A DNA stretch of 64,000 bases. It comes from Kiritimatiellia bacterium (lineage in GTDB: Bacteria > Verrucomicrobiota > Kiritimatiellia > CAIVKH01). The stretch covers positions 7,477 to 71,476 of the forward strand of contig JAMLJG010000005.1 in NCBI GenBank assembly GCA_023953695.1, written 5' to 3'. A program made the translations under genes and the position numbers. This document shows positions 1,101 to 47,118 of the stretch, piece after piece (position 1 is the stretch's first letter; every line of letters begins with the position of its first letter). The notes beneath the pieces were generated by a model. It ran no database searches, was not told where the DNA came from, and worked only from the letters and a program-made list of their open reading frames with translations.

Positions 1101-1168
1101 GAAATGGCGAATGCCAGTATTGGCAAAGCGATCCAACGAGTGTTGCAACTATGTGCGGACCGACCCCA
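1101..1168 (+). repeat. 68-bp direct repeat, copy 1 (putative Y1-transposase element end ending ...GGACCGACCCC)
   Basis: gaaatggcgaatgccagtattggcaaagcgatccaacgagtgttgcaactatgtgcggaccgacccca; 63/68 identical to 1443-1510. Positions 1144-1167 are the exact reverse complement of 47017-47040. Confidence 0.85.
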
Positions 1169-1330
1169 CTGCTCCCCCTGCTGCTGACGGCTGGCTGGTG
1201 CGCGTGCGGAGTCGCGGGGATTCTGCTGGCAATTGTTCCGCTACTCGTCTGGCGCGAGGTGCTCAAGCTACGCGCCGATCTTGAGTCGCGCGCCGCGCCG
1301 CGACCCAAAAACGGATACCCAAAGCCGTAA
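1151..1330 (+). CDS. Small membrane-peptide ORF or captured gene fragment (59 aa) whose ATG lies inside the repeat
   Basis: MCGPTPLLPLLLTAGWCACGVAGILLAIVPLLVWREVLKLRADLESRAAPRPKNGYPKP*; hydrophobic segment, followed by a hairpin at 1336-1361. Confidence 0.35.
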   Translation: MCGPTPLLPLLLTAGWCACGVAGILLAIVPLLVWREVLKLRADLESRAAPRPKNGYPKP

Positions 1331-1442
1331 CGCAACACGGCGCGACTCGCGTCGCGTCGTGAATGCAAAACTGTGAATCCGCGATACGTGATTCGACCGA
1401 CCAGTGTCATGGTAACCCGTGGCAATTCGCCCGGAGAAAATT

Positions 1443-1510
1443 GAAATGACGAATGCCAGTATTGGCAAAGCAGTCCAACGAGTGTTGCAACTATATGTGG
1501 ACCGACCCCA
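1443..1510 (+). repeat. 68-bp direct repeat, copy 2
   Basis: gaaatgacgaatgccagtattggcaaagcagtccaacgagtgttgcaactatatgtggaccgacccca; 5 mismatches to copy 1; lies about 90 bp past the RT stop codon. Confidence 0.85.
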
Positions 1511-1599
1511 ATTCCCGCTAATTAAAGAAGAGGGGGTTCTTCATCGGAAAGGGCTGACCCTGGGTGCCACCTCGGTGCGATTCGACGCAATTCTATATT

Positions 1600-3096
1600 T
1601 TAGTACATCCAAGCATTCTCAGTGAAAAGGGCGACCTCATCCGGCTTAACAACCTCCGATTTCTTTGTCGCGTCTGCGATGACAATTTTCGAAGCATCTA
1701 CAGCAGACTTAATTTCTTTGCTAGCTATCCATCCATTCTCCCACAATTCCGCCTTAAGCCCCTTGACGATTTGGCATATTGGTTCATCGCTCTCATATTG
1801 TATTCCGACTGCTTGAGGTATTGAAACGCGCTGCAGCCAAATCTCTAGGTAGCCATTGTAAGGAATGCGACGCATCTTGCTGAGCACCTGGGACCATAGT
1901 CGTTCTTTTTCACCCTTTTCCGCGAATGAGATCAAGCAGCTCAAGATGCCGGCAATGGCCGGAAAGGCAAGAGGCGACACTATGGCAATATCCGTTGCTA
2001 TTGCGACCTGAACCTCGAGATCTTCCGGTTTCTCTTTTTGCTCGGATATCTTCTCGTGAAGCTCTCCGGCAAGGCGGCGCAATGCGCCGCTATTCGGGAA
2101 GCGACGTCCGAATGCATGGAGTCGTAGCAACTGCTTTTGTATGGTCTTTGCGTTCGCGTTCCCAAGATCTTGCAAATCGATACCAGCCTGTTTATCCGGT
2201 TTTATTGAACCTTCAACAATATTTGCGCAGACCATTGTTTTTGATACACCTAATCGCATTCCAACCACACGTAGCTTGTCGCTGACAACCTTGAGAATCT
2301 GCTCCGCTCGCTGATCGTTCTGTGCAAATATACGGTAATCATCTCGGTAGCGAAGAATTCGGAAGTCGTCCTGCCTTGCAAGCTCTTTGGTGATTAAGTC
2401 GTCCACAAATCCAAGGACGATTTCCGCAATAAAATCCATCATGACAGAGCCTTGGGGAATTCCATTGGTTTGACCATAGCGACCGGCTTGCATATGTGAG
2501 TCGATCACATCGCCTAGTAGCTTATTCTTTCCTCGGCTCTCTTTTGATGCCTCTATGCCATGTATAGCCCAAGCAATACTGTGCGTATAAAGTGACCCAT
2601 AACAATCTGTTACATCCGTGTGCAGGAGGTGGCTGTAATTCAAAGAGTACACGAGGGACTTTTGCTCGACACCTTGCCACCAACTCTTTACCTGGGCCGC
2701 TTTATCAGAATTGGCATCCACGGACATAACTGGTGCGCTGCAGCAATCAACAAGGCCGCCTTCAAGCTCTTTCATGCGATTGACGATGAGCGCCCAATTG
2801 GTGGGCTCGCATATCTGGTTGACCAGTGAGACGTATAAGACAGGGTGAATCAATTCAAAAGGGCGCCAACTAAGTCTTCCGTCTTTATTGGCAACAATGG
2901 AATAGTTCACATTTGGCAATAGGCCGGGATTCCTCTCCTTGATCCCCATGAATGAGCCTCCGGCAAGGGCTATCTCTACATCAGTAAGTAGCTTCTCGAA
3001 TGAGATGTATGACGGAAAGTCGCTGTTAAAATAACTGCTGCCCTTCAAGAAGTGCTTTTTTGCCTCTTTGGCGGTATTGTCGATTAATCGCTTCAT
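1600..3096 (-). CDS. Reverse transcriptase, UG/Abi (defence-associated, DRT/AbiK-like) clade, 498 aa
   Basis: Motifs WRPFELIHPVLY, HTDVTDCYGSLYTHSIAWA (motif A), GQTNGIPQGSVMMDFIAE (motif B) and LRYRDDYRIF (motif C), followed by a helical C-terminal extension. No retron NAxxH/VTG motifs and no group II intron domain X/En seen. GC about 45-50% by spot counts versus above 60% in flanking genes. Confidence 0.9.
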   Translation of the reverse strand: MKRLIDNTAKEAKKHFLKGSSYFNSDFPSYISFEKLLTDVEIALAGGSFMGIKERNPGLLPNVNYSIVANKDGRLSWRPFELIHPVLYVSLVNQICEPTNWALIVNRMKELEGGLVDCCSAPVMSVDANSDKAAQVKSWWQGVEQKSLVYSLNYSHLLHTDVTDCYGSLYTHSIAWAIHGIEASKESRGKNKLLGDVIDSHMQAGRYGQTNGIPQGSVMMDFIAEIVLGFVDDLITKELARQDDFRILRYRDDYRIFAQNDQRAEQILKVVSDKLRVVGMRLGVSKTMVCANIVEGSIKPDKQAGIDLQDLGNANAKTIQKQLLRLHAFGRRFPNSGALRRLAGELHEKISEQKEKPEDLEVQVAIATDIAIVSPLAFPAIAGILSCLISFAEKGEKERLWSQVLSKMRRIPYNGYLEIWLQRVSIPQAVGIQYESDEPICQIVKGLKAELWENGWIASKEIKSAVDASKIVIADATKKSEVVKPDEVALFTENAWMY

Positions 3097-3651
3097 AATT
3101 CTTTTCGTCGAACCATTGATTGTCGGGAAGACTTTCCGTGCTGTTGAGTACTACGGAGCTTGTCCGAAAAGCATTCCAAGCCACAATGGCTTCACCTTTG
3201 GTTGCGAGTTTATCGTGTCTGATCTGGGGGACAATGGGAAAAGCGGGATTTTGAAGGGGTTGCCGATCGCAGCCACCCACGGGAAACAGAATGTCGGCGC
3301 CGCGCGCGCTGCGGGAACAATGGCTGAATGGTTCGTCTTTATGCGAGGCGACGCGGGTCTGCATCGCGAGCAGATGCTCGCGGCTGGCGCAGAGGGTGGT
3401 GCGTCCGCAAGTCACTGCATCTAGCACGACTGGGCGATTCTGGATGTGGCGAGGAGTTGGGTGTCAGGAGGCGGATGGGTTCTCGTGTGTTGCGCAGTGG
3501 GATGTGTGCATGCTGAAGTGGCGCGATTGAGGGCGTTCCGTCGTTTCTTGCTCTTGTAATCTGAAGTCGCAGGATTGAAAATTTGAACGCGGCGCCCGAA
3601 TTGTGGTCTATCACCGCATTCGGCGAGTGGGGAGGGCGCCCGGAGCTACGT

Positions 3652-4380
3652 ATGATTAAAGTCAGCAAACTGGTGAAGAACTTTGGCAGTCGCGCGGCGG
3701 TGCGCGATGTGTCGTTTGAGGTGAACCCCGGCGAGGTGTTGGGTTTTCTGGGTCCGAACGGGGCGGGCAAGACCACGACGATGCGGATGATTACGGGCTA
3801 TCTGACCCCTTCATCGGGCCGCGCGTGGATTCAGGGGTTCGATGTCGCGGAAAAGCCGGTCGAGGCGCGGCGGCACTTGGGCTATCTCCCGGAGAACGCG
3901 CCGTCCTATGGCGATATGACGGTGGAGGAGTTCCTTTCTTTCGCTGCGGCGATGCGCGGCTTTGCCGGGAAGGAGGCGCGGCAGCGAATCGGGGAGACGC
4001 TGGAGCGGTGCATTCTCACTTCGGTGCGGCATCAGCCGATTGAAACCCTGTCAAAAGGCTATCGGCAGCGCACGTGTTTTGCGCAGGCGATTCTGCACGA
4101 TCCTCCGGTGCTGATCCTCGACGAGCCGACGGAGGGGCTGGATCCGAATCAAAAGTTTGTGGTTCGCAATATGATTCGCGACATGGCGAAGAACAAGGTG
4201 ATCGTGTTTTCCACTCACATTCTGGAAGAGGTTGAGGCCATCTGCACGCGAGCGATCATTATCAGCGCTGGCCAGGTCGTCGCTGACAGCACCCCTGCGG
4301 AATTGCGGAAGCAGGGTTCGCTGGATCAAGTCTTCCGCTGGCTGACAACGTCGGCCGATATTGGAGGTAGCGCGCGATGA
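3652..4380 (+). CDS. ABC-2 transporter ATP-binding protein (GldA-like)
   Basis: Walker A GPNGAGKT, LSKGYRQR signature, Walker B ILDEP; ATG 3652 chosen as the start. Confidence 0.9.
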   Translation: MIKVSKLVKNFGSRAAVRDVSFEVNPGEVLGFLGPNGAGKTTTMRMITGYLTPSSGRAWIQGFDVAEKPVEARRHLGYLPENAPSYGDMTVEEFLSFAAAMRGFAGKEARQRIGETLERCILTSVRHQPIETLSKGYRQRTCFAQAILHDPPVLILDEPTEGLDPNQKFVVRNMIRDMAKNKVIVFSTHILEEVEAICTRAIIISAGQVVADSTPAELRKQGSLDQVFRWLTTSADIGGSAR

Positions 4381-5114
4381 GCAGTCCGGTTTGCACCATT
4401 CTCAAGCGCGAGTGGAAGGCGTATTTCAATTCGCCCGTCGCGTATGTTTTCATTGTGATCTTTCTGGCGCTCGCGGGATTTTTCACGTTCAACGTGAGTC
4501 GGTTTTATGAGGCGGGGCAGGCGAGTCTGGACCGCTTCTTTTTCTGGCACCCGTGGATTTATCTGATTCTGGTGCCCGCCGTCGCCATGCGACTGTGGGC
4601 GGAGGAGCGGCGCACGGGCACGCTCGAGTTGCTATTGACATTTCCGGTGACGACGGCGCAGGCCATTGCGGGCAAGTTCCTCGCCGCGTGGCTCTTCGTC
4701 CTGCTTGCGCTGGCGCTGACGTTTCCGGTGGTTGCGACGGCGTTCTATCTCGGCTCGCCCGATCCGGGGCCAATCATCACCGGATACATCGGCAGCGCCC
4801 TGCTTGCGGGCGCGTATTTGGCTGTGGGCTCGCTCACATCCGCGCTGACGCGGAATCAGGTGATCAGTTTCATCATCGCCGCTGTGATCGGATTGTTTCT
4901 GCTGCTGGCGGGCTTCCCGCCGGTGACTGATTTCCTCTATCAAGTCGCGCCCGCATGGGTGGTCGAAACCGTTGCGGGCTTCAGTTTCAGCGCGCATTTC
5001 GAGCAGATGCAGCGCGGCGTGCTGGACCTTCGCGACATTCTCTATTTTGCCAGCGCCATGGCGTTCATGCTGCTGGCTACGCATGTGACCTTGGACAACC
5101 GCAGGACGAAGTGA
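4377..5114 (+). CDS. ABC-2 permease (GldF-like)
   Basis: REWKAYFNSPVAY, MRLWAEERRTGTLELLLT, multiple TM helices; ATGA overlap with the upstream gene. Confidence 0.88.
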   Translation: MSSPVCTILKREWKAYFNSPVAYVFIVIFLALAGFFTFNVSRFYEAGQASLDRFFFWHPWIYLILVPAVAMRLWAEERRTGTLELLLTFPVTTAQAIAGKFLAAWLFVLLALALTFPVVATAFYLGSPDPGPIITGYIGSALLAGAYLAVGSLTSALTRNQVISFIIAAVIGLFLLLAGFPPVTDFLYQVAPAWVVETVAGFSFSAHFEQMQRGVLDLRDILYFASAMAFMLLATHVTLDNRRTK

Positions 5115-5121
5115 GCGGACG

Positions 5122-7017
5122 ATGAAGAGATTTGGCATTCATGTTGTGACGGGCGCCGTGGGTTTGATCGTTACCCTGGCGGTGTTGGTGTTGCTCAATG
5201 TCGCGGCAAGCTCGGTGCGCGTGCGCGCCGATCTGACCGCGGAGAAGCTCTACACACTCGCGCCGGGCACGCGCGGGCTGCTGAAGAACCTCGAGCGCGA
5301 TGTGACGTTGAAGTTCTACTTCAGCCGCAGCGCCGATGCCGCGCCAATCAATTTCAAGCAATACGGCAGCCGCATCCTCGATTTGCTGCGGGAGTATGAA
5401 AAGCTCAGTGGCGGACACCTCTCGCTCGAAGTGATTGACCCGCAGCCGGACAGCGACGAGGAAGAATGGGCGCGCCGCTACGGTCTCACCGCGTCGCGCC
5501 TCACGCAGGAGAGCGGTGCGCCTTCCGTGTTTCTCGGTCTCGTGGCCCTGTCGGGCGCGCGCCAGTCGGCGATTCCCTTTTTCTCGCCGGCGGACGAGCC
5601 GCAGCTCGAGTTCTTGATCTCTCGCGCGGTCAATGAAGTGACCGTTGCGAAGAAGCCAAAGATCGCTGTCATTTCGCCCCTGCCGCTGATGGGCGGCTCG
5701 GCGGGCTTCGTACGGCGCGGCCCGAACTTTGATGGATGGATCATCATCAACGAGTTGCGCGCCATTGCAGAAATTGAGGATTTGAGCGGCCAGGTGGAGG
5801 AGATCCCGGCGGATGTGGATACGCTGTTGTTGGTCTATCCGCGAAATCTGCCTGAGGCCACGCTGTATGCCGTGGATCAGTTCGTCCTGCGCGGGGGCCG
5901 CCTCTTCGCGCTGGAGGACCCACAATGCCTAGCCGATCTCGATGCGCAAAGCTCGCAATTTCGCGATCCCAAATCGGCGCAGGCGGATTTGAACGCGCTC
6001 ACGGCGGGGTGGGGCATCAAGATGTCCTCCGATCGCGTTATCGCCGATCCCGCCGCCGCGACGCGGGTGGCCTCGCAACTCGGAGAGGTGCAGCTCAACA
6101 ACTCGTGGCTCACGCTGCGCTCCAGCAACTTCAATCGCGAGGACGTGTCGGTTGCCGCGATGAACATGATGCAATTCCCGATGACGGGGTGGTTCGAGGT
6201 TCAGCCCGTTGACGGACTCACCGTCACACCGTTGATCACAGCGGGGCCGGAGGCCGGGAGCGTTTCGATCATCGAAGCCACCTCGGGCACCTTCGCGGGG
6301 AAAACCACTTTTGAGAAGGCGACGAACGCCTTGCCCATCGCGATCCGCGTGAGTGGACATTTCAAGACCGCCTTTCCCAACGGCCGACCCAGCAACGTTC
6401 CCGCTGGCGCGACCCATGCGCCTCCGTCCGAACCCGATGCGACGCATCTTGCCGAGAGCGTCCGCGATGGCACGGTCGTGCTGGTGGCCGATGCCGACTT
6501 CCTTTATGACGCATTCGCCGCGCGGCGCCTCCCGATGTTCGGGCCAGGTGTCTATCAGTTGATGAACGACAACATCAATTTCGCCGCGAATGTGGCCGGA
6601 CAACTTGCCGGTGGCGATGCGCTGATTGCGCTGCGCGGGCGCGGCACCTTCGAGCGCCCGTTCACACGTGTGCTCGCGTTGCGGACCTCCGCGCAGGAGA
6701 AGTGGCGGGAGCAGGAACTCAAATTGCAAGAGCAGCTCGCCACCACACAAGCCAACCTGGATCGCCTGCAATCGGGCAAGTCGGAAGATCAGCAGCTCAT
6801 CATTTCGCCCGAACAGCGGCAGGAAATTGAGCGTTTCCGCGCGCAACAACTTGAGACGCGGCGCGCGCTCAAAGAAGTGCGCAAAAATCTGAATCATGAA
6901 ATTGAAGCCCTCGGTCTGTGGGTCAAGGCGCTGAATATCGGCGCTATGCCAGGACTCGTTATCCTGTTCGGCCTGGCGCACGGCTGGCGTCGGCGCCGCC
7001 GTGCGCGCAGTCGCTGA
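5122..7017 (+). CDS. GldG-like ABC-type auxiliary component
   Basis: N-terminal TM, RADLTAEKLYTL, DQFVLRGGRL, C-terminal coiled coil plus TM; operonic with GldA/F-like genes. Confidence 0.85.
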   Translation: MKRFGIHVVTGAVGLIVTLAVLVLLNVAASSVRVRADLTAEKLYTLAPGTRGLLKNLERDVTLKFYFSRSADAAPINFKQYGSRILDLLREYEKLSGGHLSLEVIDPQPDSDEEEWARRYGLTASRLTQESGAPSVFLGLVALSGARQSAIPFFSPADEPQLEFLISRAVNEVTVAKKPKIAVISPLPLMGGSAGFVRRGPNFDGWIIINELRAIAEIEDLSGQVEEIPADVDTLLLVYPRNLPEATLYAVDQFVLRGGRLFALEDPQCLADLDAQSSQFRDPKSAQADLNALTAGWGIKMSSDRVIADPAAATRVASQLGEVQLNNSWLTLRSSNFNREDVSVAAMNMMQFPMTGWFEVQPVDGLTVTPLITAGPEAGSVSIIEATSGTFAGKTTFEKATNALPIAIRVSGHFKTAFPNGRPSNVPAGATHAPPSEPDATHLAESVRDGTVVLVADADFLYDAFAARRLPMFGPGVYQLMNDNINFAANVAGQLAGGDALIALRGRGTFERPFTRVLALRTSAQEKWREQELKLQEQLATTQANLDRLQSGKSEDQQLIISPEQRQEIERFRAQQLETRRALKEVRKNLNHEIEALGLWVKALNIGAMPGLVILFGLAHGWRRRRRARSR

Positions 7018-7045
7018 ACCGGGCGAGCGAAGTGGAGAACACTCG

Positions 7046-8167
7046 ATGAAATCACGAACCCTCATTCTCTTGCTGATTGTCCTCGTCGCGCTGGCGATGT
7101 TCATTTCCAAGGTCGGTCGGCGCTCGCACGAGGCCTCGCCCACAGAGTTGGGCCAGCGGGTGCTGCATACGAAGGATATCAACGCGATTGAGCGGATTGA
7201 GCTGACCAGCGGGACGCAACAGGTGGTTCTTGCTCGGACGGATGGCGAATGGGCGGTCGGATCGCTGTGGGACTATCCCGCGCAGTTCGAGCCGATCGCT
7301 GCGCTTTTGCGGCAACTCGATCAGTTGCGCGTGGGAGAGGTGATTCGCGGCGGCACCGAGATTTTAGATGAATTCGGCCTCGCGGAGAGCGCAACGAGCT
7401 TTCCGGTTCGGGTGAAGCTGTTTGAATCGGCGGACACGGCGACTGACGATTTGCTCATCGGCCTGCCTCGCACATCCTCTGCCATGCCCGCGGGCTTCTC
7501 GATGCCGGACAGTCGGTACTATCGCTCGGGCGATGGAGAGGTTGTCATTGCCGAGCCGTTTGTGGAAGAGGTGCGCCGCCGACCCACCGACTGGATTGTT
7601 TCAAAGCTGCCGAGTTTCGGACCCAGTGAGATCGGTTCGATGACTGCCTATCCGACAAATGGCGCAATGTATGCCCTCGATCGAGATGCAGACGGCACCT
7701 ACAGCGGCGCAGGAGCGCTCACAGGAAAGGTCATCAATGTGGCCAGCGCTGAAATCTGGTTTCGCTCGCTCCAGAACCTTTCGACGCGCTCCATTGTGGA
7801 TCCGGCCACCGATGCAAAAGCGCTCGCGCGCGGCGCGAGCGGCAGCGCCGTTGCGCACTTGACCAACGGCATTGTCGTGCGCGTGGAACTCGGCGCGCTC
7901 ACGCCGGAGAATATGGGTCACTACGGCTGGCTCACGTTCACCTACGAGGAACCTCCCGCGCTTGCGCACGGCGAGGAAGCGGCGCTGGCCGCGGATCGCG
8001 CCGCTCGCGATGCGGCGCGCGAGGAAGCTGAGAAACTGCAGGCAAGATATGGCCACTGGATTTACGTCTTCGACTACAGCCAAGCCACCAAACTCCTCTT
8101 CCTTCCCGACCAGCTAATCGTGGCGAACGCCGCGCCTCCTCCGCTGCCGCCCGCCGCGAAAGATTAG
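7046..8167 (+). CDS. DUF4340-like membrane-anchored protein
   Basis: MKSRTLILLLIVL anchor, W...WDYPA, EFGL, LLIG, PTDW motifs; typical fourth gene of Gld-like ABC operons. Confidence 0.7.
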   Translation: MKSRTLILLLIVLVALAMFISKVGRRSHEASPTELGQRVLHTKDINAIERIELTSGTQQVVLARTDGEWAVGSLWDYPAQFEPIAALLRQLDQLRVGEVIRGGTEILDEFGLAESATSFPVRVKLFESADTATDDLLIGLPRTSSAMPAGFSMPDSRYYRSGDGEVVIAEPFVEEVRRRPTDWIVSKLPSFGPSEIGSMTAYPTNGAMYALDRDADGTYSGAGALTGKVINVASAEIWFRSLQNLSTRSIVDPATDAKALARGASGSAVAHLTNGIVVRVELGALTPENMGHYGWLTFTYEEPPALAHGEEAALAADRAARDAAREEAEKLQARYGHWIYVFDYSQATKLLFLPDQLIVANAAPPPLPPAAKD

Positions 8168-8296
8168 CAGCACCAGCCGAAATTAAGTCGCCCATTTATT
8201 GCGCAACAGATTGGTGGTCAGACTGTTGCGACAGCCTGTCGAAAAGTCTGGAAGTTTGCAGCGGCGCGTTGTCTAGTCGTTCTCACAGGTTCAACT

Positions 8297-10266: not shown

Positions 10267-10269
10267 GCC

Positions 10270-13200
10270 ATGAAGATTCTGCAGATACGATTTCAGAATC
10301 TGAACTCGCTGACGGGCGAGTGGGCGATTGATTTCACAAACTCGGCGTATGCGGAAGAGGGCCTCTTTGCCATTACGGGGCCGACGGGCGCGGGGAAGAC
10401 CACCATCTTGGATGCGATTTGTTTGGCGCTGTATGGGAAGACCCCTCGGTTGGATCGCATCACCAAGTCCGAGAACGAGGTGATGTCGCGGCAGACGGGC
10501 GAATGTTTTGCCGAGGTGACGTTTGCGACGAATACGGGTCGCTATCGCTGTCGTTGGAGCCAGCGCCGCGCGCGCAAGAAGCTCGATGGCGAGTTGCAGC
10601 AGCCCGAGCGCGAACTGGCGAATGCGGACACGGGCAAAATCTTGGAATCTCAACTCCGCGGCGTCGAGGCGAGGATCGAGGAGATCACGGGGATGGACTT
10701 CGCGCGTTTTACCCGGTCCATGATGTTGGCGCAGGGCGCGTTTGCGGCTTTTCTGAAAGCCAGCGCCGACGAGCGGGCTCCCATTCTGGAACAGATCACG
10801 GGCAGCGAGGTCTATAGCGAGATATCCCAGTTTGTTCACGAGCGCCAACGAGAGGAGCGCGGAAAGCTCGATGCGTTGAAGGCCGAGTTGTCGGGAATCA
10901 CGATTCGCGACGACGAGTGGGAAGCGCAGGTCCGACAGGCGATTGCGGACGAGCAAGGGAAGGAGGACGCGCAGGCACGCGAGTTGAAGGCAACGGAAGG
11001 CGCCATCCAATGGCGACGCGCGATTGCCGAGATGGAGAAGGAGATTGCCTCCTTGACGGGTGAGGCCGCGCGGTTGCAGGAGGAAGGTCGGAACTTCGCG
11101 CCGCTTGCCGAGCAGTTGAAGCGAGCGGAATCAGCCGCCACGCTGGACTCCGTGCACGCGGAGCTCAAGACTCATCGCGAAGCGCAAGAAGATCGAGTGG
11201 GCCGCTTGAGCCAGTTCAAACAAAGTCTTCCCGAGTTGGAGGCGGCGCTCGCAGCTCAGGTGCGCGAAGCGGAGGCTGCGGAGCGGAAAGTGGAGGAGAC
11301 GAAAAGCGCGATTGATGAGGCCGAGCCAATCTGGCGGCGGGTGCGCGAACTCGATCAGAGCATTGCAGCGCATGCGGAGCAGGCGGCGGCCCTTGCTGAG
11401 CAGTGCGCGGGAACCGAAGCGAAGATCAGCGATCAGGAATCCGAGCTGGCACGCTATCGCACTGCCGGTGAGAAGGCGGCTAAAGAACTCGATCTTTGCG
11501 CTCGCTACCTGAAGGAGAACGCGCGGGATGAGGCCCTGTTCAGCGGACTCGCCGGAGTCCGAGAGCAGGTGAAGGCCGATAGCGCCAGGCGCGACGAGCT
11601 TGCAGAAAATGAGGACGAGCTCAAGGCTGCAAGGCGCGCTTTGGTCAAGGCAGACGCGGAGAAGAAGGGAGCAGAAAAGGCGCTGGAGAGTCAGCGCAAG
11701 GCGATGGAGGCGCAAGAGGAGGCGCTTGCAGAGCAGCAGAAGAAGTTGAGTGCGATCTTGAAGCGACGCACGCTGCGAGACTATCGCGCGGAGAAGGATG
11801 CGCTGCAGCGTGAACGCGTGCTGCACACTAAGATTGCCGAGTTGGAGGCAGAGCGCGCGCACTTGGAAGATGGCAAGCCCTGTCCGCTCTGCGGCGCGAC
11901 GGAGCATCCCTATGCGCAGGGAAGCACTCCCGCTGTTAGCGAGGTGGATACGAAAATTGATGTGTTGGAGAGACAGATTCGGGCCGCCGAGAAGATGGAA
12001 GAGCAGGTCAAACGGAGCGAGCGAGCGGTTGCAGAGCAGAAGGAGAAGTTCTCGCAGATCAAGGAAGCGGCCGCGCTCGCAGGTCGCGATGTCACGAGCG
12101 GGAGAAAGCAGATCGAGCGGCTTGAAAAAGCTCTCGCGAAGGCGCGCATCGCACGGGAGGGTCAGCGCGCGACGATTGTGAAGAGCTTTGAGCGCTTTGG
12201 TGTCGCGTATGACGATGCAAAAGCCGACGCGGCGCTCAAGTCGCTCGAGGCTCGGTCGAATGCGTGGCAGCAGCACACGCAGCAGCGCACCGAAGTTGAG
12301 AAGCTGTTGGGCGCGATCAGCGGCGAGCTCAAGAAGGTCGCCGCCGTGATTGCGTCGGAGCGCACACGGTTATCGAAAGAGCAAAAGGATCGGGACAACG
12401 CGAACGCGAAACTCGCTGCGATGCGGAGGGAACGCAGCGAGCTCTTCGGCGCGAAGCGTCCGGACGATGAGGAGCGAAAGGTTCGATCCACTCTTCTCGC
12501 GTGTGAGCGGGCTGCGAAAGAGCAGCGCGCGCAGCGCGAGCAACTGCAGAAGCGCGTTGACGAACAGAAAACGCGCAAAGGAGCGCTGGAGGCCGAGATT
12601 GCAAAGCGGGCTCCGGAACTCAACGCGCTTGCCGCGAATTTTTCGGCGAAGTTGAAGAGTCTGCATCTGGAGTCTGAAGAAGAATACGTGCGGCAGCGAC
12701 TTTCGCCGGAGCGCCGACAGGCGCTCAAGAAGCAGGCCGACGACTTGGCGAAGCGCGGGACCCAACTGCAAAGCCGGCAAGCGGATCGCCAACGGCGGTT
12801 GACGGACCAGCTTGCGCGCGCGGTGACGGAAGAATCCCTGGAGGCGTTGGAACCGCGCGCGGAAGAGTTGCAGCGGGCGTTGGGCGTTGTGCGCGAACTG
12901 ATGGGCGGGCTGCGCAGCCAACTGCAGCAGAACGCGGAAGCCAAGGAGCGAATCGGCGCAAAGCAAGCGGGTATAGACGCGAAGCAGCAAGAGTGTTTGC
13001 GGTGGGACAATCTTCACGCGTTGATCGGTTCGGCGGATGGGAAGAAGTTCCGAAACTTTGCGCAAGGGCTGACGTTCCAGGTGATGATTGGCTTCGCGAA
13101 CAAGCAGTTGCAGCGCATGACGGATCGGTATCTGCTCACGCGCAGTCGGGAGAATCCGCTGGATCTGTGCGTGGTGGACAACTATCAGGCGGCGGAAGTG

Positions 13201-32011: not shown

Positions 32012-32018
32012 TTGGCAC

Positions 32019-39640: not shown

Positions 39641-39676
39641 TTCACGCGGCTGGGAGAAAAACCCCAGCCGCGTGAA
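39641..39676 (-). terminator. Strong hairpin downstream of the DUF2723 gene
   Basis: 14-bp perfect stem ttcacgcggctggg / cccagccgcgtgaa; weak U-tail. Confidence 0.6.
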
Positions 39677-39684
39677 GGCGGCGG

Positions 39685-42600
39685 CTAAAGGCCCGGAATA
39701 CTGAAGTTGATTGGGAGTTCGGCGCGCGATTGCGGCGCCGGAACGAGCGATTGAAATGCTGGCGCGCCTCGAACGGGATCAAAGCGCTGATCTTTTCGCG
39801 CCATATCGCGCACGGACTCGCCGCCCAATTCAATGGCCTTTCTGAGTGTCTGCACCGATTCATTGGTGCGCCGAAGTTGGGCCTGTACGGCGGCGAGATC
39901 GAACCAGATGCGCGGATTGGATGGCTCCTTTTGGAGATAGCGCTCCAAGGCGACGGCGAGAAGATCGCCGCGCTGTGTGGTGGAGTAGAGCTCGGCGACT
40001 TGGAGGATGACCGCGGGCGGGACATTCTCCTGCCGGAGGATGTTCATCGTGAGATTTTCGAAGAGCTGCATGATGTTCATCTGGCGATAGATGTTGGCCA
40101 ATTCCAGCGCTGTGTTGATGTCGGCGCCCGTTTGCATCTTGGGCTCGAGCTCGCGGCGTCGGTTGTCGAGGGATTCGAGTTGGCGGATTTGGTTCAGGAA
40201 TTCGGCCACGCGATCGTTGGCCGGGTCTTCTTTGAGGAACGCCTCAATCACTTCGCGCGCGCTGCTAAAGCGGAACTGTTGCATCTCAATATCCGCGAGG
40301 CGGAAATTGGCCTCGGGGCTGATCGGATAGAGTGCGATGGCTTGCTGAAAGGCGTGTTCAGACTCGTTGAACATGCGGCGATAGGCATAGAGTCCGGCGA
40401 TTGCGCTGCGCAGCTTGGAGAAGGTCTTGCGCGCGACCACATCGCGCAGGAATTTCGGATTGGCGAGGAGGCGCTTTGTGTACCAATCCCAGAACTCGGT
40501 GTCGTTCTTCACCATTTCGGGCGTGAGCCCGGGCACCGGTTCTTTGTTGATCTTCATGATCAAGCCGTGCGGGGTGAGGTAGGGATACATCCATGGGATG
40601 ACGTAGCTCTCTTCGACATAGAAGTCGTGTTTGCTCTTGTTGGCCTCGAAAATCATCTGGGCGAGAATCCCGTTGATGGCCATGACCCCCTGTACGCCCT
40701 GCACGCTGACACGACCGCCTTCGAAGGAGACATCTGCGCCCGCTTGAATGCGGCCCGCGCGGACATCTTCGACGTATTTTTGGAAGGCGAAATTGCTGTC
40801 CTGCTGCGAGGGGATCCAGATGGAGTCGCCGTAGAGGTCGCGCATGACGTTCATGTAGGTGTTGTCGGCCAGCGCGTTCTGCGTGATGAGGTAGACGTCG
40901 GAGCGGAAGTGCGCCGAGTAGATCATGTAGGTGGGGACGAATCGCCCGGGGTCGGTTCCACCGAAGAAGACTGCGTTGGTCGTCATGCGGGGAGGATATT
41001 CGGGATTGGGAAACGCGGCTCGCTCTTCCTCTGAAATTTCGGAGAGAATGGCGTTCGCCCCCTCCAGTTGCCAGGCGCCGAATTGCCATCCGAAATCGTG
41101 CCCATTCTGTTCGGCGCCGCCGACGAGCTGGATGAATTGTTTGTCGTATGCGTTCTTGAGGAGAGGCACCGATGGCAGCACGAGCGCCAGTGTGCAGAAG
41201 GCCGTCAAGAAGGCCCGGTTGCCATCCGCCCAGGAGTTGAGTCGGGCGATAAGGAAGAGGATGCCATAGCTGATCCAAATGGCCCAGATGGCGTGGGATT
41301 GAATGTATTGCACGCGGCCGATGAAGAGGGTTTGCACGTCCAGTTTGGGCCACTGGAAAATGAGGAAGATCACGGTGAGCGCGTGGAATGTGACGAAGCT
41401 GGTAATGATCCACCGCATGCCGCCGCCCAATTGGCTCTCTTCGAACCAGTGGTGGATTCGAATGAGGAAAAGGCAGATGGGAATCCCGCAGATCACGACG
41501 ATGAGCGGCGCGGGGATGGGGAATGCCAGCGTGAAAATTGCAACGCACAGAAGCGGCACGATGAAGAGCGCAAGGAATGCGCCAACCCAGAGCAGGGGCG
41601 CTTTTCCGCCCGCCTCGCCGGTGGGATTTCGCGCCCGCGCGTGGTTATTGAGGAACACCATGGGAATGGCGATCAGCGCGAGCAGGGCGAAGAGGGAAAT
41701 GCCCCAACTAAATTGTGCCACGACGGAGACGTAGCCGATGGGGTCCACAATCACGTCTTCCAGCATCTTGGCGAAATAGGCGGGGCGCGCAATGGCATCT
41801 CGGAAGTTGGCAGAAGGATCAATCTTCTCGTATTGCCCACGCGAGACGGCATGAACGAAACCCTCGGGGGTTCGCGGATAGCCCCAATTCATGGGCGGGT
41901 TTTGCTCGGACGCAAAGGGGAGATAGGCGTAGAACGAGAGGCCGAGTCCTGCCGCGATTGCCAGAATCGCAACGCGCTTCCACTCGGTCATCAGGCGACG
42001 CTCGATAAAAAACACCGCGATGGGCGCGGCGAGGAAAATGGCGCCGACAATCATCAGCATTTGCTTTTGTTGAATAGACTGAGGCTGTGTGACCACCCCC
42101 ATTCGATAGGCGAGGGCGAAGACGACTGCGGCGATCAGCCAGAGCGAGCCCGCGAGGCAATCGCGAAATAGCTCTCGGTCTCGCAAGGCAATGGCGGTAA
42201 GCAAGCCGGGCGCCATGAAGAGAAGCGCTTGGTGGTTCGTGAGGCCGAGGCCGAAAACAAAGGCGGTGATGTAGAGCGTCTTGTCCTCGTGCGGTCGGCA
42301 CATCCAGCGGTACATCAGCAGCATCGTAAGAGACATGAAAAATGCATTGAGGCCGTACACCTCAACAATGGTCGCCTGCGACCAGAGAACGGGGCTGAAG
42401 GCAAACAACAAGCCGCCGACGATTCCCGCCACGCCGCCGATGCCCCGCACCGCGCTCTTGCTGAGTTTCTCAACCGATTTGCCGAGCCCGCGCAGAATAT
42501 CCGCCCCTGATCGGCTGATGAGCTGCGCGAGCAGTGCAGCGGCCAGCGCGCTAAAAAAGCCTGAGCAGAGCCCGACCGACCAGGCGGGATTGGGATGGCC

Positions 42601-42978
42601 TTGGAATCCCTCGCCGACGAATACATCGTGGAGCGATCGCAGAACCAAGGTCACGTTCCCGTCCGGTTGACCGTAGTAGCGAACCCAATGGAATATCCAC
42701 TGGAAGAACCACGTGACGAGAGTCCAAATGGGATAGCCGGGCGGGTGGGGTACTCCGAGATAGTCAGAGCCGACGGCTAGTTCGCCGGAGTCTTCCAGTG
42801 TGACCGTGGGCGCATTGGTATAGAAATAGACGCCGAATGAGATGAGGAAGGTGATCCAAAACGCCCACCAATCCGCACGGCGAAAGAAGGGTGTGTTTGG
42901 AGTTTCGGCGCTGTCGCCGTCTACGGATTGAACCGTCTTGACTGCCGCCGCGATTTTTTCGTCAACACTTTTGGCCAT
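39685..42978 (-). CDS. DUF2723 (TMEM260-like, GT-C fold) membrane protein with C-terminal TPRs
   Basis: APTVTLEDSGEL, LGVPHPPGYP, WSQATIVEVY, GLGLTNH, PPMNWG; many TM helices; TPR-like C-terminus. Confidence 0.88.
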   Translation of the reverse strand: MAKSVDEKIAAAVKTVQSVDGDSAETPNTPFFRRADWWAFWITFLISFGVYFYTNAPTVTLEDSGELAVGSDYLGVPHPPGYPIWTLVTWFFQWIFHWVRYYGQPDGNVTLVLRSLHDVFVGEGFQGHPNPAWSVGLCSGFFSALAAALLAQLISRSGADILRGLGKSVEKLSKSAVRGIGGVAGIVGGLLFAFSPVLWSQATIVEVYGLNAFFMSLTMLLMYRWMCRPHEDKTLYITAFVFGLGLTNHQALLFMAPGLLTAIALRDRELFRDCLAGSLWLIAAVVFALAYRMGVVTQPQSIQQKQMLMIVGAIFLAAPIAVFFIERRLMTEWKRVAILAIAAGLGLSFYAYLPFASEQNPPMNWGYPRTPEGFVHAVSRGQYEKIDPSANFRDAIARPAYFAKMLEDVIVDPIGYVSVVAQFSWGISLFALLALIAIPMVFLNNHARARNPTGEAGGKAPLLWVGAFLALFIVPLLCVAIFTLAFPIPAPLIVVICGIPICLFLIRIHHWFEESQLGGGMRWIITSFVTFHALTVIFLIFQWPKLDVQTLFIGRVQYIQSHAIWAIWISYGILFLIARLNSWADGNRAFLTAFCTLALVLPSVPLLKNAYDKQFIQLVGGAEQNGHDFGWQFGAWQLEGANAILSEISEEERAAFPNPEYPPRMTTNAVFFGGTDPGRFVPTYMIYSAHFRSDVYLITQNALADNTYMNVMRDLYGDSIWIPSQQDSNFAFQKYVEDVRAGRIQAGADVSFEGGRVSVQGVQGVMAINGILAQMIFEANKSKHDFYVEESYVIPWMYPYLTPHGLIMKINKEPVPGLTPEMVKNDTEFWDWYTKRLLANPKFLRDVVARKTFSKLRSAIAGLYAYRRMFNESEHAFQQAIALYPISPEANFRLADIEMQQFRFSSAREVIEAFLKEDPANDRVAEFLNQIRQLESLDNRRRELEPKMQTGADINTALELANIYRQMNIMQLFENLTMNILRQENVPPAVILQVAELYSTTQRGDLLAVALERYLQKEPSNPRIWFDLAAVQAQLRRTNESVQTLRKAIELGGESVRDMARKDQRFDPVRGAPAFQSLVPAPQSRAELPINFSIPGL

Positions 42979-43141
42979 AATAGATTGCGTTACAAGGTTT
43001 TTGAGATGAAGTATACCGACACGAATCGAGAACCCTAGATTTTCGCGAATAGTGCGTCAAGTTTCATGCGCTCGCTGATCGCTGGGCTGTTTCGACAGCG
43101 CAGCCGCCGCCGCGTTGAAGGCTTTGTTGGCCGGGCGCGGA

Positions 43142-44164
43142 CTATTTTGCCGGAGTGGGAGCGGACTGGAGCAGTTGTAGGGCGGCGGCGCGCGATTCGG
43201 CGATGCGGCGGCTCGATTCGTTGAGCGCGGCGCGAACCTGTTCGAGGTCGGCTTTGATCTTCGGCAGTGCATCATCGTCCTTGGCGTTTCCGGAAAAGGC
43301 CGCAGCTTGCTCGTGGGCGGTGGCGAGTTGGGCCGTGAGGGCCTCCCCCGCGGTTCGGCAGTCGTTCAGCTCAGCCTGCAGGCTGGTTTTGAGGGACTCC
43401 CACTCAGTCTCGGCCGCTGCTTCGGCCTCGCCCCGCTTCTTCTTTGCGGAGTCGCGGGCCGATTTCAGGTCTTTCTCGAGCTTCTCATTTGCTTTGCGCA
43501 GCTTTTCCAGTTCCTTCGAGTCCGCCTTGGCCTGTTTGAGCTGTTCCTGCAACCCGTCTGCTGATGCGCGCGCCTCCATCAACTGATTGGTGGCTTCTCG
43601 ATATTGCAGATCAATGGCGACGAGTTGATTGGAGATCAGGGTGATTTGTTCGAGGAGTGCTCGGGCCTCGTTTTGAGCCGCTGCGAGTTCCGGCGCTTCA
43701 AGGCGCGCCTTCTGAACGGCCTCCATATCGGCTTCGAGCGAGACTTGCGTCTCCTTGATCTTCTGATTCTCTTCGCGGAGCGCTTCGTTCTCCACGCTGA
43801 GCTGCGCGATACGCTGTTGCGCCTCGGCCAAGGCCACATCGGCTGTGGCAGCGAGGGCATCGGCTGAGGGGCCGGATCCCGTGCGGCCTTTTACCGCCTC
43901 CAGTTGCGAGCGGCAGTAGGCGATGCGGTGCTGGATAACCGAAGCCTGCCAATTCGGGTCTTTCTGTGCAATGGCGCTGTAAAGATCGGCCGCTTCACCA
44001 TAGAGGCGCTGCGCGTCTGCAAACGCTTCGCGGTCGCGCGCGAGATCAGCCTGAATGGAGACCTTGTAGGCTTCTGCGATGTTTTCCTCCAGACCTTGCT
44101 GCGCCGAGGCGGAAGAGATTGCGATTCCGAGGAACAAGGCCAGAATAAAAAAGAGATTCTTCAC
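43142..44164 (-). CDS. Hypothetical secreted coiled-coil protein
   Basis: Signal peptide (NLFFILALFLGIAISSASA), TPR-like helix pair, long heptad repeats. The longer ORF-track start overlaps tRNA-Gly, so the start was trimmed. Confidence 0.7.
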   Translation of the reverse strand: MKNLFFILALFLGIAISSASAQQGLEENIAEAYKVSIQADLARDREAFADAQRLYGEAADLYSAIAQKDPNWQASVIQHRIAYCRSQLEAVKGRTGSGPSADALAATADVALAEAQQRIAQLSVENEALREENQKIKETQVSLEADMEAVQKARLEAPELAAAQNEARALLEQITLISNQLVAIDLQYREATNQLMEARASADGLQEQLKQAKADSKELEKLRKANEKLEKDLKSARDSAKKKRGEAEAAAETEWESLKTSLQAELNDCRTAGEALTAQLATAHEQAAAFSGNAKDDDALPKIKADLEQVRAALNESSRRIAESRAAALQLLQSAPTPAK

Positions 44165-44196
44165 GTCGGGAATCGAAGCCGCGTACGGCATAAAAG

Positions 44197-44271
44197 TGGA
44201 GCGGGAGATGGGATTTGAACCCACGACATTCACCTTGGCAAGGTGACGCTCTACCACTGAGCTACTCCCGC
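44197..44271 (-). tRNA. tRNA-Gly(GCC)
   Basis: GCGGGAGTAGCTCAGTGGTAGAGCGTCACCTTGCCAAGGTGAATGTCGTGGGTTCAAATCCCATCTCCCGCTCCA; cloverleaf with encoded CCA. Confidence 0.97.
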
Positions 44272-44420
44272 AATAAAGAAGCGCAAATCTAGCCCGCGCA
44301 CGGACTCACTTCAAGCGATTTTTCACCCGTTTTGATGTCATATATTGCCTCAAATGGAATGACGCTAAAAAGTCCGCCATTCGGGCAGACTTGGAAAGCG
44401 GACCGGATAGGAGCGAAAGT

Positions 44421-44858
44421 TCAGGCGCCTCCTCGCGCAGCCGCAAAGGCAATAACGATTGAGCCGATGGAAACCAATACAATGCCAAGCCACGCCAGCG
44501 GACTGGGTCGCTCTCCAAGAAATGCGAATGCAAATAAAGCAACCAACACGACGCTGAGCTTATCCAAGGGTGCGACCAGCGAGGCGGGGCCGGCTTGTAA
44601 TGCTCGGAAGTAGCAAACCCATGATGCGCCCGTTGCGATAGCAGAAAGAGCGAGAAAGACCAACGTGCGGGGTGGCAGAGAGAGTGGGTTGGACCACTTG
44701 CCCGTTAAGAGGACGAATGGACCGAGGAGCGCGAGCACAACAGTAGTGCGCAAAAGCGTAGCAAGATCACTGTCCACGTTTGCGACGCCAACTTTTGCAA
44801 AAATTGCGGTCAACGCGGCGAATCCAGCCGCGAGAAATGCCCAGAATGTCCAACTCAT
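44421..44858 (-). CDS. EamA/DMT family small transporter
   Basis: FAALTAIFAKVG, ATGASWVCYFRAL, VAPLDKLSVVLV. Confidence 0.9.
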   Translation of the reverse strand: MSWTFWAFLAAGFAALTAIFAKVGVANVDSDLATLLRTTVVLALLGPFVLLTGKWSNPLSLPPRTLVFLALSAIATGASWVCYFRALQAGPASLVAPLDKLSVVLVALFAFAFLGERPSPLAWLGIVLVSIGSIVIAFAAARGGA

Positions 44859-45204
44859 CGCAAGGAACCTCCAGATTGCCTGTCCCGCTGAAAGCCCATA
44901 CAGTCGGCCATCGCTTTCATGTGTGAATGTATCTCATGATAATATATGACCGGTCAATCGAGGGCCATCTGCGCGTGCGCTGGCGGCAGTGTGCCGAGGC
45001 TGGGGCGAGCGACAAGGCTGTGCCGCTTGGAGGCCACGAAATTGGGGAAGGGCTATCAACTTGTGATGAGAGAGAACGAGGGACCGGTGAGCGCGATTGA
45101 CGAGACTGTGATTCGCCGCCAGCCTACTTGATCACTCTCTATCGCCTGATTCTATCCAGTTTGGTTCGTATTCTGAAGAGATCGGGCCTGAGGGAAAGGG
45201 TTTC

Positions 45205-45380
45205 GCCGGAACGAGTGGCGGTGGTTTGAGCCCCCCCAACCTTTTGAGAAAGATTTCGCGGGACGGTGTGGGTAGGGCGCGTTGGCCCAACGCGCCGGAG
45301 CGGGTTCGGGTGTGAGCGAGGGGGTATTGCCGGGACGAGTGGCGGCGGTTTGAGCCAAACCGCCCTACCTTTTGGGAGAA
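45205..45380. repeat. GTAG-type REP-like palindromes in inverted doublet plus a degenerate direct copy
   Basis: ggtagggcgcgttggcccaacgcgcc (45271-45296) and ggcggtttgagccaaaccgccctacc (45344-45369; reverse complement ggtagggcggtttggctcaaaccgcc). 45205-45250 is a decayed copy of 45329-45380. Confidence 0.7.
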
Positions 45381-45471
45381 GGCATGAGCAGGTGGGGATG
45401 ATAGGCGGATGCTTGGAAGTGTGCGAGTCGGGCGCGAGAGGTGTTGGTCGTTAGATATTCAATATTGACGC

Positions 45472-46494
45472 GTGAGACGATGCGAGCGGGGCGAGCGAGG
45501 CCTGGCCGACCCGCAGGATGGCGAGGTTGCAGTGAACGGACTGACCGCCACGTTGCGTACGGTCGGCGGACAGACCATTTTCGCCGCCACGAGGAAGGTG
45601 TCCGTGGTTGCCCGAAACGCGGGGTATGATTATGATGCGAATGGAAACATGACCACGGACGGACAATTTGAATACGTCTGGGACAACGCCGACCGGCTCA
45701 AAGAAGTGCGCAAAGATGGGCAAGTCGTGATGACCTGCCGCTATGACGACACGCTCGGCGGTGCCGGTGGAATTGGTGGCATCCTGTCGTGCTCAACCTC
45801 CGCGACCTCTACGGTCTACTATCACTACGACGCCAATGGAAACGTCATCGCTTGCACGGATGCGGACGGCGCCCTCGTCTCACACCTCGAATACAGCCCC
45901 TTCGGCAAAGTGATGCTGAACTCCGGCTCCTATGTCCCGCGTTATCAGTTCTCTTCAAAGGAATTCGATGCCGCAGTCGGGCTGAATTATTACGGCTTCA
46001 GATACTACTCACCGCAGTTGGGAAGGTGGCTCAATAGGGATCCTGTCAGCGACGAATCATTCTTACGACTTCAGTTGGCCAACCCTGATTGGCAAGATAA
46101 GCGAAAAATCGAGAGACAGTTCCGGAATGCAGCTCTGAAACCGTTATACGTCTATGTAGAAAATCGCCCAATCTCTGAATTCGATCCATTCGGTCTGGAC
46201 AATTCAGGTGGTGGAGGTCAAAACGAACCAATTGATCCGACGTTTGGATGCTGGATCGATCCTCCCGAGAGAATTTGCGGGGCGGGAAATTCATTCCGAG
46301 AACGCTGCTGCCGATTCGGTGTAGAAATAATCATGCTTCTGGACCCAGGTGCCCACTGTCAGGGTTCCGCTACAGCATGTGAAGTATGCTGTGGTACAAA
46401 GCTCCTTGATGATCCTACTTTTAGTGAGAGCCACTTCGATCTATGCATTAATTCATGCGAACTGAAGCGAGTGGCATGCACGGGTGGGTTGTGA
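45472..46494 (+). pseudogene. Orphan Rhs fragment: RHS repeat-associated core plus Cys-rich C-terminal tip
   Basis: YDYDANGN, WDNADRL, GGAGGIGG, YSPFG, YQFSSKEFD..GLNYYGFRYYSPQLGRWLNRDP, PISEFDPFGL cleavage motif. No credible start or N-terminal Rhs body. Confidence 0.85.
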
Positions 46495-46784
46495 TGAGCA
46501 GGAAGGATTTGCTTGTCATGTTCGCCGGGTTCGCGATGGGTGCCGTGTTGGCCAGCGCAGTTATTGTGCAACAGTATGCAAAGTTTTCGCGGCTAGAACT
46601 AATTAATCTCTACTTGTCTGCCCTAAAACAGCAAGAAAATCAGTTGCGGCTGATTAGTATTGGCGATATCGGTGAAGCGACGCGACTTTCCGAGCGATGG
46701 CTCGCCCATTGTCGGTCTGCGGTTTCCAATCTCGGCGGGCGGGTCGACAGCGGGGGAATTGCGCCGAGCGGGGTCAGGCCGTAA
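46494..46784 (+). CDS. Candidate immunity protein for the Rhs tip (96 aa, N-terminal TM)
   Basis: TGATG overlap with the Rhs stop; MSRKDLLVMFAGFAMGAVLASAVIV anchor; the 3' end runs into a GGGGTCAGG motif. Confidence 0.6.
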   Translation: MSRKDLLVMFAGFAMGAVLASAVIVQQYAKFSRLELINLYLSALKQQENQLRLISIGDIGEATRLSERWLAHCRSAVSNLGGRVDSGGIAPSGVRP

Positions 46785-46818
46785 AGGCCGTTGAAAAACT
46801 CAGATAAACGATGAACAC

Positions 46819-46889
46819 GCTCGCAATGGGGTCAGGTCGCTCGCAATGGGGTCAGGTCTTGACATGCTACATTCCGTCGTGTTGAGATG
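46819..46889 (+). repeat. Tandem GCAATGGGGTCAGGTC motifs plus 47-bp unit, copy 1 (putative left end of a Y1-transposase element)
   Basis: gctcgcaatggggtcaggtc x2 (46819-46858). The 47-bp gcaatggggtcaggtcttgacatgctacattccgtcgtgttgagatg at 46843-46889 is identical to 47072-47118. Confidence 0.85.
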
Positions 46890-46894
46890 CGTTT

Positions 46895-47017
46895 ATGTCA
46901 CGACCGATACGGATCAATTTGGATGGTGTATGGTATCACGTCACCGCGAGGGGAATAGAGCGGCGCGCGATCTTTACCGGGGCAGCGGAATATTGTCACT
47001 TTCAAGATGTGGAATAG
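46895..47017 (+). pseudogene. N-terminal stub of a Y1 HUH (RAYT/IS200-like) transposase, 40 aa
   Basis: Manual translation MSRPIRINLDGVWYHVTARGIERRAIFTGAAEYCHFQDVE* matches the RAYT N-terminal pattern (R..R....G..YHVTARG..RRAIF). It stops where the inverted motif begins. Confidence 0.8.
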
Positions 47018-47118
47018 GGGTCGGTCCGCACATAGTTGCAGAATGAGAGCAAGCAATGGGGTCAGGTCCAAGCAATGGGGTCAGGTCTTGACATGCTACA
47101 TTCCGTCGTGTTGAGATG
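47017..47118. repeat. Inverted copy of the 24-bp GACCGACCCC end, tandem caagcaatggggtcaggtc x2 and 47-bp unit copy 2
   Basis: 47017-47040 ggggtcggtccgcacatagttgca is the reverse complement of 1144-1167; tandem 19-mers at 47050-47087. Confidence 0.85.

Follow-up and report, generated by a model that had tools for sequence, protein, structure and literature searches.

Putative TIRtron ends in two variable regions of a Kiritimatiellia genome

Repeats of the window and their element family

The window analysed here is a stretch of 64,000 nucleotides (nt) from a Kiritimatiellia bacterium, corresponding to G000:C35:7477-71476 of a 2.62-Mb assembly (genome G000; 39 contigs, 93.6% complete). Short repeats are found at two of its loci. 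Locus A, flanked by recC (1-855, minus strand) on one side and by an ABC ATPase gene from 3583 onward on the other, contains a reverse transcriptase of the AbiP2 defence type, and locus B (44859-48926), which is a classic variable island next to ssrA, contains an orphan Rhs C-terminal module followed by a putative immunity gene. The original prediction regarded these repeats as one family of Y1-transposase ends between which such genes may be captured and shuffled. Judged from sequence, the repeats are ends of elements of a known class, the TIRtrons, whose transposases (TIRYTs) form TnpA_Y1 subclass 2.1. The window holds no working transposase copy, only three stubs of one subfamily (subfamily 2; two right ends and one left end) and two truncated left ends of another (subfamily 1).

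The 24-mer TGCAACTATGTGCGGACCGACCCC is present exactly at 1144-1167 (plus strand), with two mismatches at 1486-1509 (plus strand) and exactly at 47017-47040 (minus strand), which confirms the three sites reported originally; 0.00 matches were expected, and 0 of 100 shuffles reached three. Both plus-strand copies are contained in a 71-nt direct repeat (1098-1168 and 1440-1510, 92% identical). The motif cluster described beside a transposase stub is equally real: GGGGTCAG occurs five times on the plus strand within 46770-47084 (at 46770, 46828, 46848, 47058, and 47077), next to a 40-codon Y1 open reading frame (ORF), and within the cluster units of 19-20 nt stand in tandem at two places (46818-46857, 47048-47086) and a stretch of 47 nt recurs exactly (46843-46889, 47072-47118). 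The 8-mer GGGGWSAS alone is not enriched in the window (18 occurrences against 14.65 +/- 3.24 expected, a count reached in 17 of 100 shuffles). Chance is exceeded only by the longer repeats and by the local cluster, and the short motif by itself carries no weight.

A profile scan of the genome with PF01797 gave nine Y1-transposase matches, which fall into three subfamilies when read with their flanks. The repeats of the window are the terminal inverted repeats (TIRs) of such units, each ~1.1 kb long with a single HUH/Y1 gene of ~300-350 aa. In the intact units (on contigs C21, C10, and C4, and in G001:C2 of a relative) one TIR precedes the gene and an inverted copy spans its last codons. Subfamily 1, with a protein starting MSRPIRINLDGVWYHVTARG, has the TIR ATGGGGTCAGGTCTTGACATG ~50 nt before the start codon and the inverted copy over the last codons, and has intact copies on C21 (349 aa) and C10 (348 aa). 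Subfamily 3 (protein start MARKLRVQYPGAIYHV, TIR GGGGTCAGTTCTTGGTA) is intact on C4 (299 aa). The TIR of subfamily 2 is the 24-mer itself, which in relatives lies ahead of a gene starting MPRSIRIEYAGGVYHVMCRG and in its inverted form encodes the final residues LQLCAD and the stop codon. The clearest intact subfamily-2 element is that of G001:C2 (~1.09 kb, with an ORF of ~338 aa counted from the first ATG). The presence of TIRs on intact Y1 genes bears out the proposal that the motifs are GGGG(A/T)CA-type ends of HUH/Y1 units and that the stub derives from such a gene. An intact cognate gene somewhere in the genome had also been expected, and this is so for subfamilies 1 and 3, on other contigs. 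However, we could not find an intact subfamily-2 gene in the 93.6%-complete assembly, where there are only C-terminal remnants of at most 33 aa, and intact copies were found in relatives only.

The idea of one end family does not hold, as the 24-mer belongs to subfamily 2 and the GGGGTCAGG cluster to subfamily 1, and all that the three subfamilies have in common is the tip GGGGTC(A/G)G (6-8 nt). The tips of subfamilies 1 and 3 read GGGGTCAG, fitting GGGGWSAS; that of subfamily 2 reads GGGGTCAG in relatives and GGGGTCGG in G000, where it fits 7 of the 8 GGGGWSAS positions. The GGGGGACA at 3226-3233, on the far side of the reverse transcriptase gene, had been put forward as a possible partner end. 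It is present, but neither a TIR nor any longer repeat resembles it.

A census of the genome with three TIR patterns yielded 34 ends, against 0 with the reversed patterns; one degenerate end on C36 was added by hand, giving 35 ends in 15 clusters. The 16-nt core was present in 10 of the 61 genomes searched (G000 included), and several of its copies in relatives lie 25-140 nt from a contig end. Outside this lineage we examined 80 TIRYT loci (904 kb in all), 60 of them complete enough for a TIR test, and terminal inverted repeats nearly always starting (G)GGGTCA were present at 51 of these 60 loci, from many phyla. More than 3,245 homologues of ~347-350 aa are known; metagenome bins of Verrucomicrobiota are the source of most, and the contigs that carry them often measure 1.1-1.5 kb.

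The Y1 proteins match PF01797 (E 7.7e-14), and the HUH motif (H60, H62) and the tyrosine Y119 in YVHLNP are invariant in the 14 aligned sequences. A PDB sequence search with the subfamily-1 protein returned no match at E up to 0.01. According to passages of the original description, RAYT-like genes flanked by TIRs in place of repetitive extragenic palindromes (REPs) have been named TIRtrons, encoding TIRYTs, and many of their TIRs have GGGGWSAS, with further TIR copies that are single, dimeric, or grouped (Di Nocera, De Gregorio and Rocco 2013, PMC3733652). TIRYTs have since been equated, in passages of a later classification, with TnpA_Y1 subclass 2.1, i.e. long proteins without REPs that carry a C-terminal helix-turn-helix (HTH)-like domain of the Bac_DnaA_C, HTH_23, or HTH_28 type (Quentin et al. 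2018, PMC6006769). We could not find an HTH with Pfam in the last 149 residues of our proteins (299-349 aa) at E up to 10, and PF08299 is recorded for 2 of 120 homologues among the matches listed. The elements agree with TIRtrons in having a long Y1/HUH gene between TIRs that start with GGGGWSAS, no REP hairpins, and solo and clustered TIRs elsewhere in the genome. They differ in the co-residence of three multi-copy subfamilies, in nested insertions and pile-ups of stubs, in tandem partial copies with a fixed start at their ends, and in co-localisation with Rhs modules.

Two other groups of Y1 elements were considered. REPtrons (a RAYT gene with REP or REPIN sequences) likewise combine a related Y1 core with inverted repeats around the gene and short repeats that outnumber it. 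However, the ends here are plain 17-24-nt inverted repeats instead of GTAG-tagged hairpins, the gene itself is multi-copy, and the match to the NCBIfam model REP_Tyr_transpos (NF047646) reaches 69 bits, under its 80-bit cut-off. C25 does carry a true REPtron, which is of another type. IS200/IS605 elements (IS608 and ISDra2, known for 'peel and paste') share the HUH/Y1 chemistry and the format of small single-gene units, but have subterminal hairpins, no TIRs, and a transposase of ~130-150 aa, whereas our elements carry TIRs and score 27.9 bits with transpos_IS200 (NF033573), under the cut-off of 55. The 24-mer was also considered as a sigma-54 or sigma-70 promoter and as a dif/Xer site; by eye the spacings fit neither, and both readings were dropped once its nature as a TIR was clear. 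The tmRNA and two tRNAs were all that an Rfam scan detected, and no RNA family matched at the repeats.

Ends in the recC-ABC interval and next to the tmRNA gene

In locus A, a first solo right-end stub of subfamily 2 (1098-1168, plus strand) consists of 46 nt of the 3' end of the Y1 coding sequence, the 24-nt TIR (1144-1167), which is the same as that closing the intact gene in relatives, and one further base. A second one (1440-1510, plus strand) is 92% identical to it, and its outer edge meets the low-GC AbiP2 segment. The inner boundary is shared by both, which marks them as copies of a single fragment rather than as two separate truncations. They are separated by 271 nt holding a possible 59-codon membrane-protein ORF (1151-1330, plus strand), with its ATG inside the TIR of the first stub, one predicted membrane helix, and no Pfam match; this may be an orphan gene of immunity type or no gene at all.

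The convergent AbiP2-type reverse transcriptase (1600-3096, minus strand; 498 aa) matches the PADLOC profile AbiP2 PDLC03744 with E 1.9e-184 over its full length (residues 1-495 against profile positions 4-487 of 489), matches RVT_1 as well, and has a GC content of 47.6% against 59.5% for the window. It lies beside the stubs and does not belong to a TIRtron. A stub is present on one side of the gene only. AbiP2 homologues are rare, being found in 2 of 201 genomes of the class (G000 included), and G000 has a second copy on C9 (37499-38962, 43% identical); neither of the two other homologues has a TIR nearby.

The original prediction called for a comparison with relatives, in search of an empty site bounded by the motifs. 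The recC-ABC synteny is kept in a single relative, G002, in which no empty site was found and where the variable interval corresponds to 857-3570 of the window and does not end at the stubs. In G002 this interval (G002:C43, L033 2025-4395) contains a different Y1_Tnp gene and, after it, four tandem ~120-nt repeats that all have a strong hairpin; a gene for an alpha/beta hydrolase is also present.

In locus B, the orphan Rhs C-terminal module (45472-46494, plus strand) comprises a YD repeat, the end of the Rhs-associated core (TIGR03696, E 6.3e-16), and a low-GC tip, and has paralogues with 80-93% identity on C6, C10, C38, and C1. After the tip comes a putative immunity ORF of 109 aa (46455-46784, plus strand) with no family match, whose last codons contain a lone GGGGTCAGG (46770-46778), 50 nt before the repeats that follow; this is either a chance match or a further short remnant of an end. 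A stutter, as we call a tandem partial copy, here of 10 flank nt and the tip of a subfamily-1 left end (46818-46837, plus strand), then precedes the left end proper (46838-47006, plus strand; TIR 46846-46866). This left end includes the first ~37 codons of a Y1 gene, corresponding to a 40-codon stub ORF (46895-47017) that ends before the HUH motif, and is 97.5% identical over 161 nt (46844-47004) to the 5' end of the Y1 gene copy on C10. It is followed by a subfamily-2 solo left-end stub (47011-47045, plus strand; GGAATA, TIR 47017-47040, GAATG) that matches a stub on C21 at every one of its 35 nt, and by a second stutter and a second subfamily-1 left end (47048-47118, plus strand; TIR 47075-47095), which is cut at 47118 by an IS3-family insertion sequence (IS; 47119-48497, minus strand) with perfect 29-nt inverted repeats and orfA/orfB. 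Next to this is a fragment of a second, IS3-like (rve) transposase gene (48498-48860, plus strand). The IS3 flanks, a TIRtron left end on one side and the rve fragment on the other, form no target duplication, which suggests a later rearrangement.

The tmRNA gene (48927-49280, minus strand) bounds the island with its 3' end. Homology stops exactly there (48926) in all four relatives of the genus, whose flanks are unrelated, and an empty site at the tmRNA gene was not found in any of the four. In G003, a TIRYT gene lies within ~1.2 kb of the tmRNA.

Tandem partial copies, pile-ups, and a proposed mechanism

Exact tandem partial copies such as the two in locus B are present at 11 of 45 distinct ends in the genus, and consist of 7-10 nt of flank plus 7-34 nt of TIR. 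The start of the unit is fixed at 7-10 nt outside the GGGG, and its inner end varies. Longer same-direction pile-ups start at the same point, both on C10, where copies of 27, ~110, and ~280 nt precede the intact gene, and in the window, where the copies measure 20, 169, 19, and 52 nt. In other phyla, 14 of 104 ends have a further copy of their 7-nt flank no more than 45 nt away, compared with 15 of 2,080 control positions.

The ends have constant flanks (GCGAGA/GGAAGA, GGAATA, and CAAT). We attribute these to the element, because intact IS3 orfA has TCAAGA where the junction with a subfamily-3 end has GGAAGA; this excludes, for subfamily 3, the alternative of a fixed target with the element inserted on its 3' side. 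Both TIRs include GCAAT in other phyla. We discarded the idea that a fixed staggered cut gives rise to the stutters, since their outer boundary stays the same and their unit lengths vary between 14 and 42 nt, and for the same reason we prefer a process of nicking, priming, and rejoining, of which the stutters look like the footprint. They are a new detail relative to the described TIRtrons, and the word 'duplication' is absent from PMC3733652, although the stutters may already be drawn in published figures or supplements.

Elements are also nested in each other. Subfamily 3 is inserted into subfamily 1 (on C4 and C10) and into IS3 orfA on C1, where the IS3, another copy of that of the window, is cut by the subfamily-3 end. 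As TIRtrons insert in each other and in IS3, and IS3 in turn cuts one of them in the window, these regions have the look of a sink for insertions. On C21 an array runs from a stub through an Rhs fragment with tip and immunity gene, a second stub, and a further Rhs fragment to an intact element, with units bounded by same-direction left-end stubs and no closing right end. The eight subfamily-2 stubs of G000 include two by AbiP2, three in Rhs modules, and one each by a CRISPR array, a restriction-modification pair, and an IS110 fragment; the restriction-modification (methyltransferase/restriction) pair lies ~1.1 kb from its stub, and the right-end stub on C21 begins ~7 nt beyond the point where the repeats of a type II CRISPR array end. 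The statement that the motifs abut foreign or broken pieces thus proved correct, the pieces being AbiP2, the Rhs tip/immunity module, the CRISPR array end, and IS3.

We propose, with a probability of roughly 0.7, that the repeats are decayed TIRtron ends of two subfamilies that have piled up in variable regions without capture of cargo. TIRtrons would be, or would have been, mobile. The TIRYT would nick 7-10 nt outside the GGGG, the free 3' end would prime a short copy, and the enzyme-bound 5' end would be rejoined, leaving a duplication that starts at the nick. The stubs, nested and cut by IS3, have piled up in the recC-ABC interval and in the island at the tmRNA 3' end, regions in which foreign toxin and defence genes collect as well; the neighbourhood of these genes would reflect a shared tolerance of insertions rather than capture. 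TIRtrons were named in 2013 and have been little studied; the term TIRYT is rare in the literature that we searched, and the passages available from it give no mechanism. The genus is unusually informative in this respect, with three subfamilies in a single genome, clear signs of repeated insertion, and a footprint that predicts the nick site.

Association with Rhs modules and alternative explanations

Several observations weigh against simple accumulation. Of the 15 TIR clusters, five are found 1.5 kb or less from an Rhs core end, where 0.19 were expected (0 of 20,000 permutations), and of the ten Rhs core ends in the genome seven have a TIR within 1.5 kb and nine within 5 kb, a very strong co-localisation. 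In two relatives a subfamily-2 core is found 0.75-2.7 kb downstream of every Rhs core end and in the same direction (2/2 in G001, 3/3 in G004). Four left-end stubs from three genomes run, at once or after no more than ~100 nt, into the YD repeats of Rhs, and two of these come directly after an immunity gene. Seven of the eight subfamily-2 stubs of G000 have toxin or defence loci no further than ~2 kb away (AbiP2, Rhs, the CRISPR array end, the restriction-modification pair), and in locus A the low-GC AbiP2 segment starts exactly at the end of the second stub. The non-random placement near accessory genes that had been predicted is therefore present, but it is not particular to these elements: of seven loci with transposase genes of the rve, IS110, or IS256 type, four are no more than 5 kb from an Rhs core end, a control which, being based on seven loci only, itself leaves weight on the other side. 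Moreover, an Rhs core end is present at only 1 of the 80 TIRYT loci of other lineages; within the genus no subfamily-2 core follows the single Rhs core end of G003 or that of G005, and G007 has 19 copies of the core with no Rhs match. As a pattern, the association with toxin and defence genes is real; it is, however, shared by other IS families and absent from the TIRtron family elsewhere, and these controls argue for a shared insertion sink over a new cassette-capture system.

Taken as active capture, the original prediction is that a TIRYT acting in trans would join or move AbiP2 or Rhs fragment-tip-immunity cassettes at TIR ends, in the manner of integrons or ISCR elements. Same-direction stub arrays that are each followed by foreign cargo (the C21 array, and in the window the succession of stub, 271 nt, stub, and AbiP2) and the joining of TIR stubs to Rhs repeats in three genomes are what such a process might leave, as is the frequency of toxin and defence neighbours among the subfamily-2 stubs. 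However, no cargo was found between a left and a right end, the other AbiP2 copies are without TIRs, the junctions hit different places in the Rhs repeats, and the intact subfamily-2 enzyme is missing from the assembly. The resemblance to integrons and to ISCR/IS91 capture comes down to short recombination-site-like repeats beside foreign cassettes. There is no recombinase by an attI-like site and no attC-like site per cassette, nor is there a two-tyrosine rolling-circle enzyme or cargo between matching ends, and the features that might have suggested an integron-like platform show AbiP2 with a one-sided stub, an interval (857-3570) that does not end at the stubs, and C21 units that are not closed. 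Since cargo between paired ends is lacking, GGGGGACA is no end, other IS families co-localise equally, and the association occurs at 1 of 80 loci elsewhere, integron-like capture is not supported; we consider it improbable, and transposase-driven capture and shuffling is a possibility, not a finding. A related version, in which nicking by the TIRYT at a fixed point 7-10 nt outside the GGGG, with priming and rejoining, would give rise to the stutters and the stub pile-ups and would occasionally also join foreign single strands there (Rhs fragment-tip-immunity, AbiP2, or CRISPR-adjacent DNA), so that the stubs would be scars of HUH-driven cassette entry, seems to us just as doubtful. If true, it would mean that the TIRYTs of this Kiritimatiellia genus do more than move their own gene.

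Somewhat less unlikely, though still well behind accumulation of decayed ends, is a passive role in which the TIRtron copy after the immunity gene would serve as downstream homology arm, and the Rhs core as upstream arm, for swaps of tip and immunity gene between loci or strains. The element would then matter for cassette turnover through homologous recombination, and its enzyme would not. The modules of the window and of C10 fit this idea in being alike in the upstream REP region and the Rhs core (~90% protein identity), divergent in tip and immunity gene, and alike again from the subfamily-1 left end, and the same layout follows all five full-length Rhs genes of G001 and G004. Yet the sequences just outside the left ends differ, each with its own stutter, which independent insertions would explain as well, and we saw no exchange event between strains. 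For RecA-type recombination, moreover, TIRs (21-24 nt) and stubs (40-170 nt) offer short substrates, which weighs against such exchange. Whatever its origin, the placement of TIRtron copies just after Rhs immunity genes is relevant to the annotation of polymorphic-toxin loci in Kiritimatiellia (Verrucomicrobiota).

Rhs loci are known to collect insertion sequences: in the Rhs elements of E. coli, H-rpt (ISAs1-type) is habitually found just downstream of the core extensions. Its transposase is of a different class, and it is a precedent only in this respect. In the titles and listings of our literature search we found no paper treating an association of Rhs with Y1, RAYT, or IS200 elements.

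A few further observations concern the same regions. Hairpins of the GTAG-type REP class lie just upstream of orphan Rhs modules, in the window at 45140-45440 and in L037 at 12340-12700; they are the repeats that flank the classical RAYT gene on C25 (G000:C25:9794-9997), and the segment of REPs plus Rhs core is duplicated on at least C10 and C35. The assembly has two long Rhs genes (G000:C1:1-4438 and G000:C26:20000-21814), each of which runs into a contig end, and some 'orphan' Rhs modules could be the true 3' ends of these genes, split by assembly breaks at repeats. The type II CRISPR-Cas locus of C21 (L035 482-5941) contains a Cas9-like ORF, Cas1, and eight repeats at 66-nt spacing. G000:C36:12875 and G000:C39:90560-90700 share an outer flank and a degenerate TIR, beyond which the one has a left-end and the other a right-end interior, as expected if two TIRs of one element had recombined and inverted it. 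Finally, the stretch is present in 20 sequencing runs from 13 studies, mostly sludge, wastewater, and digester metagenomes.

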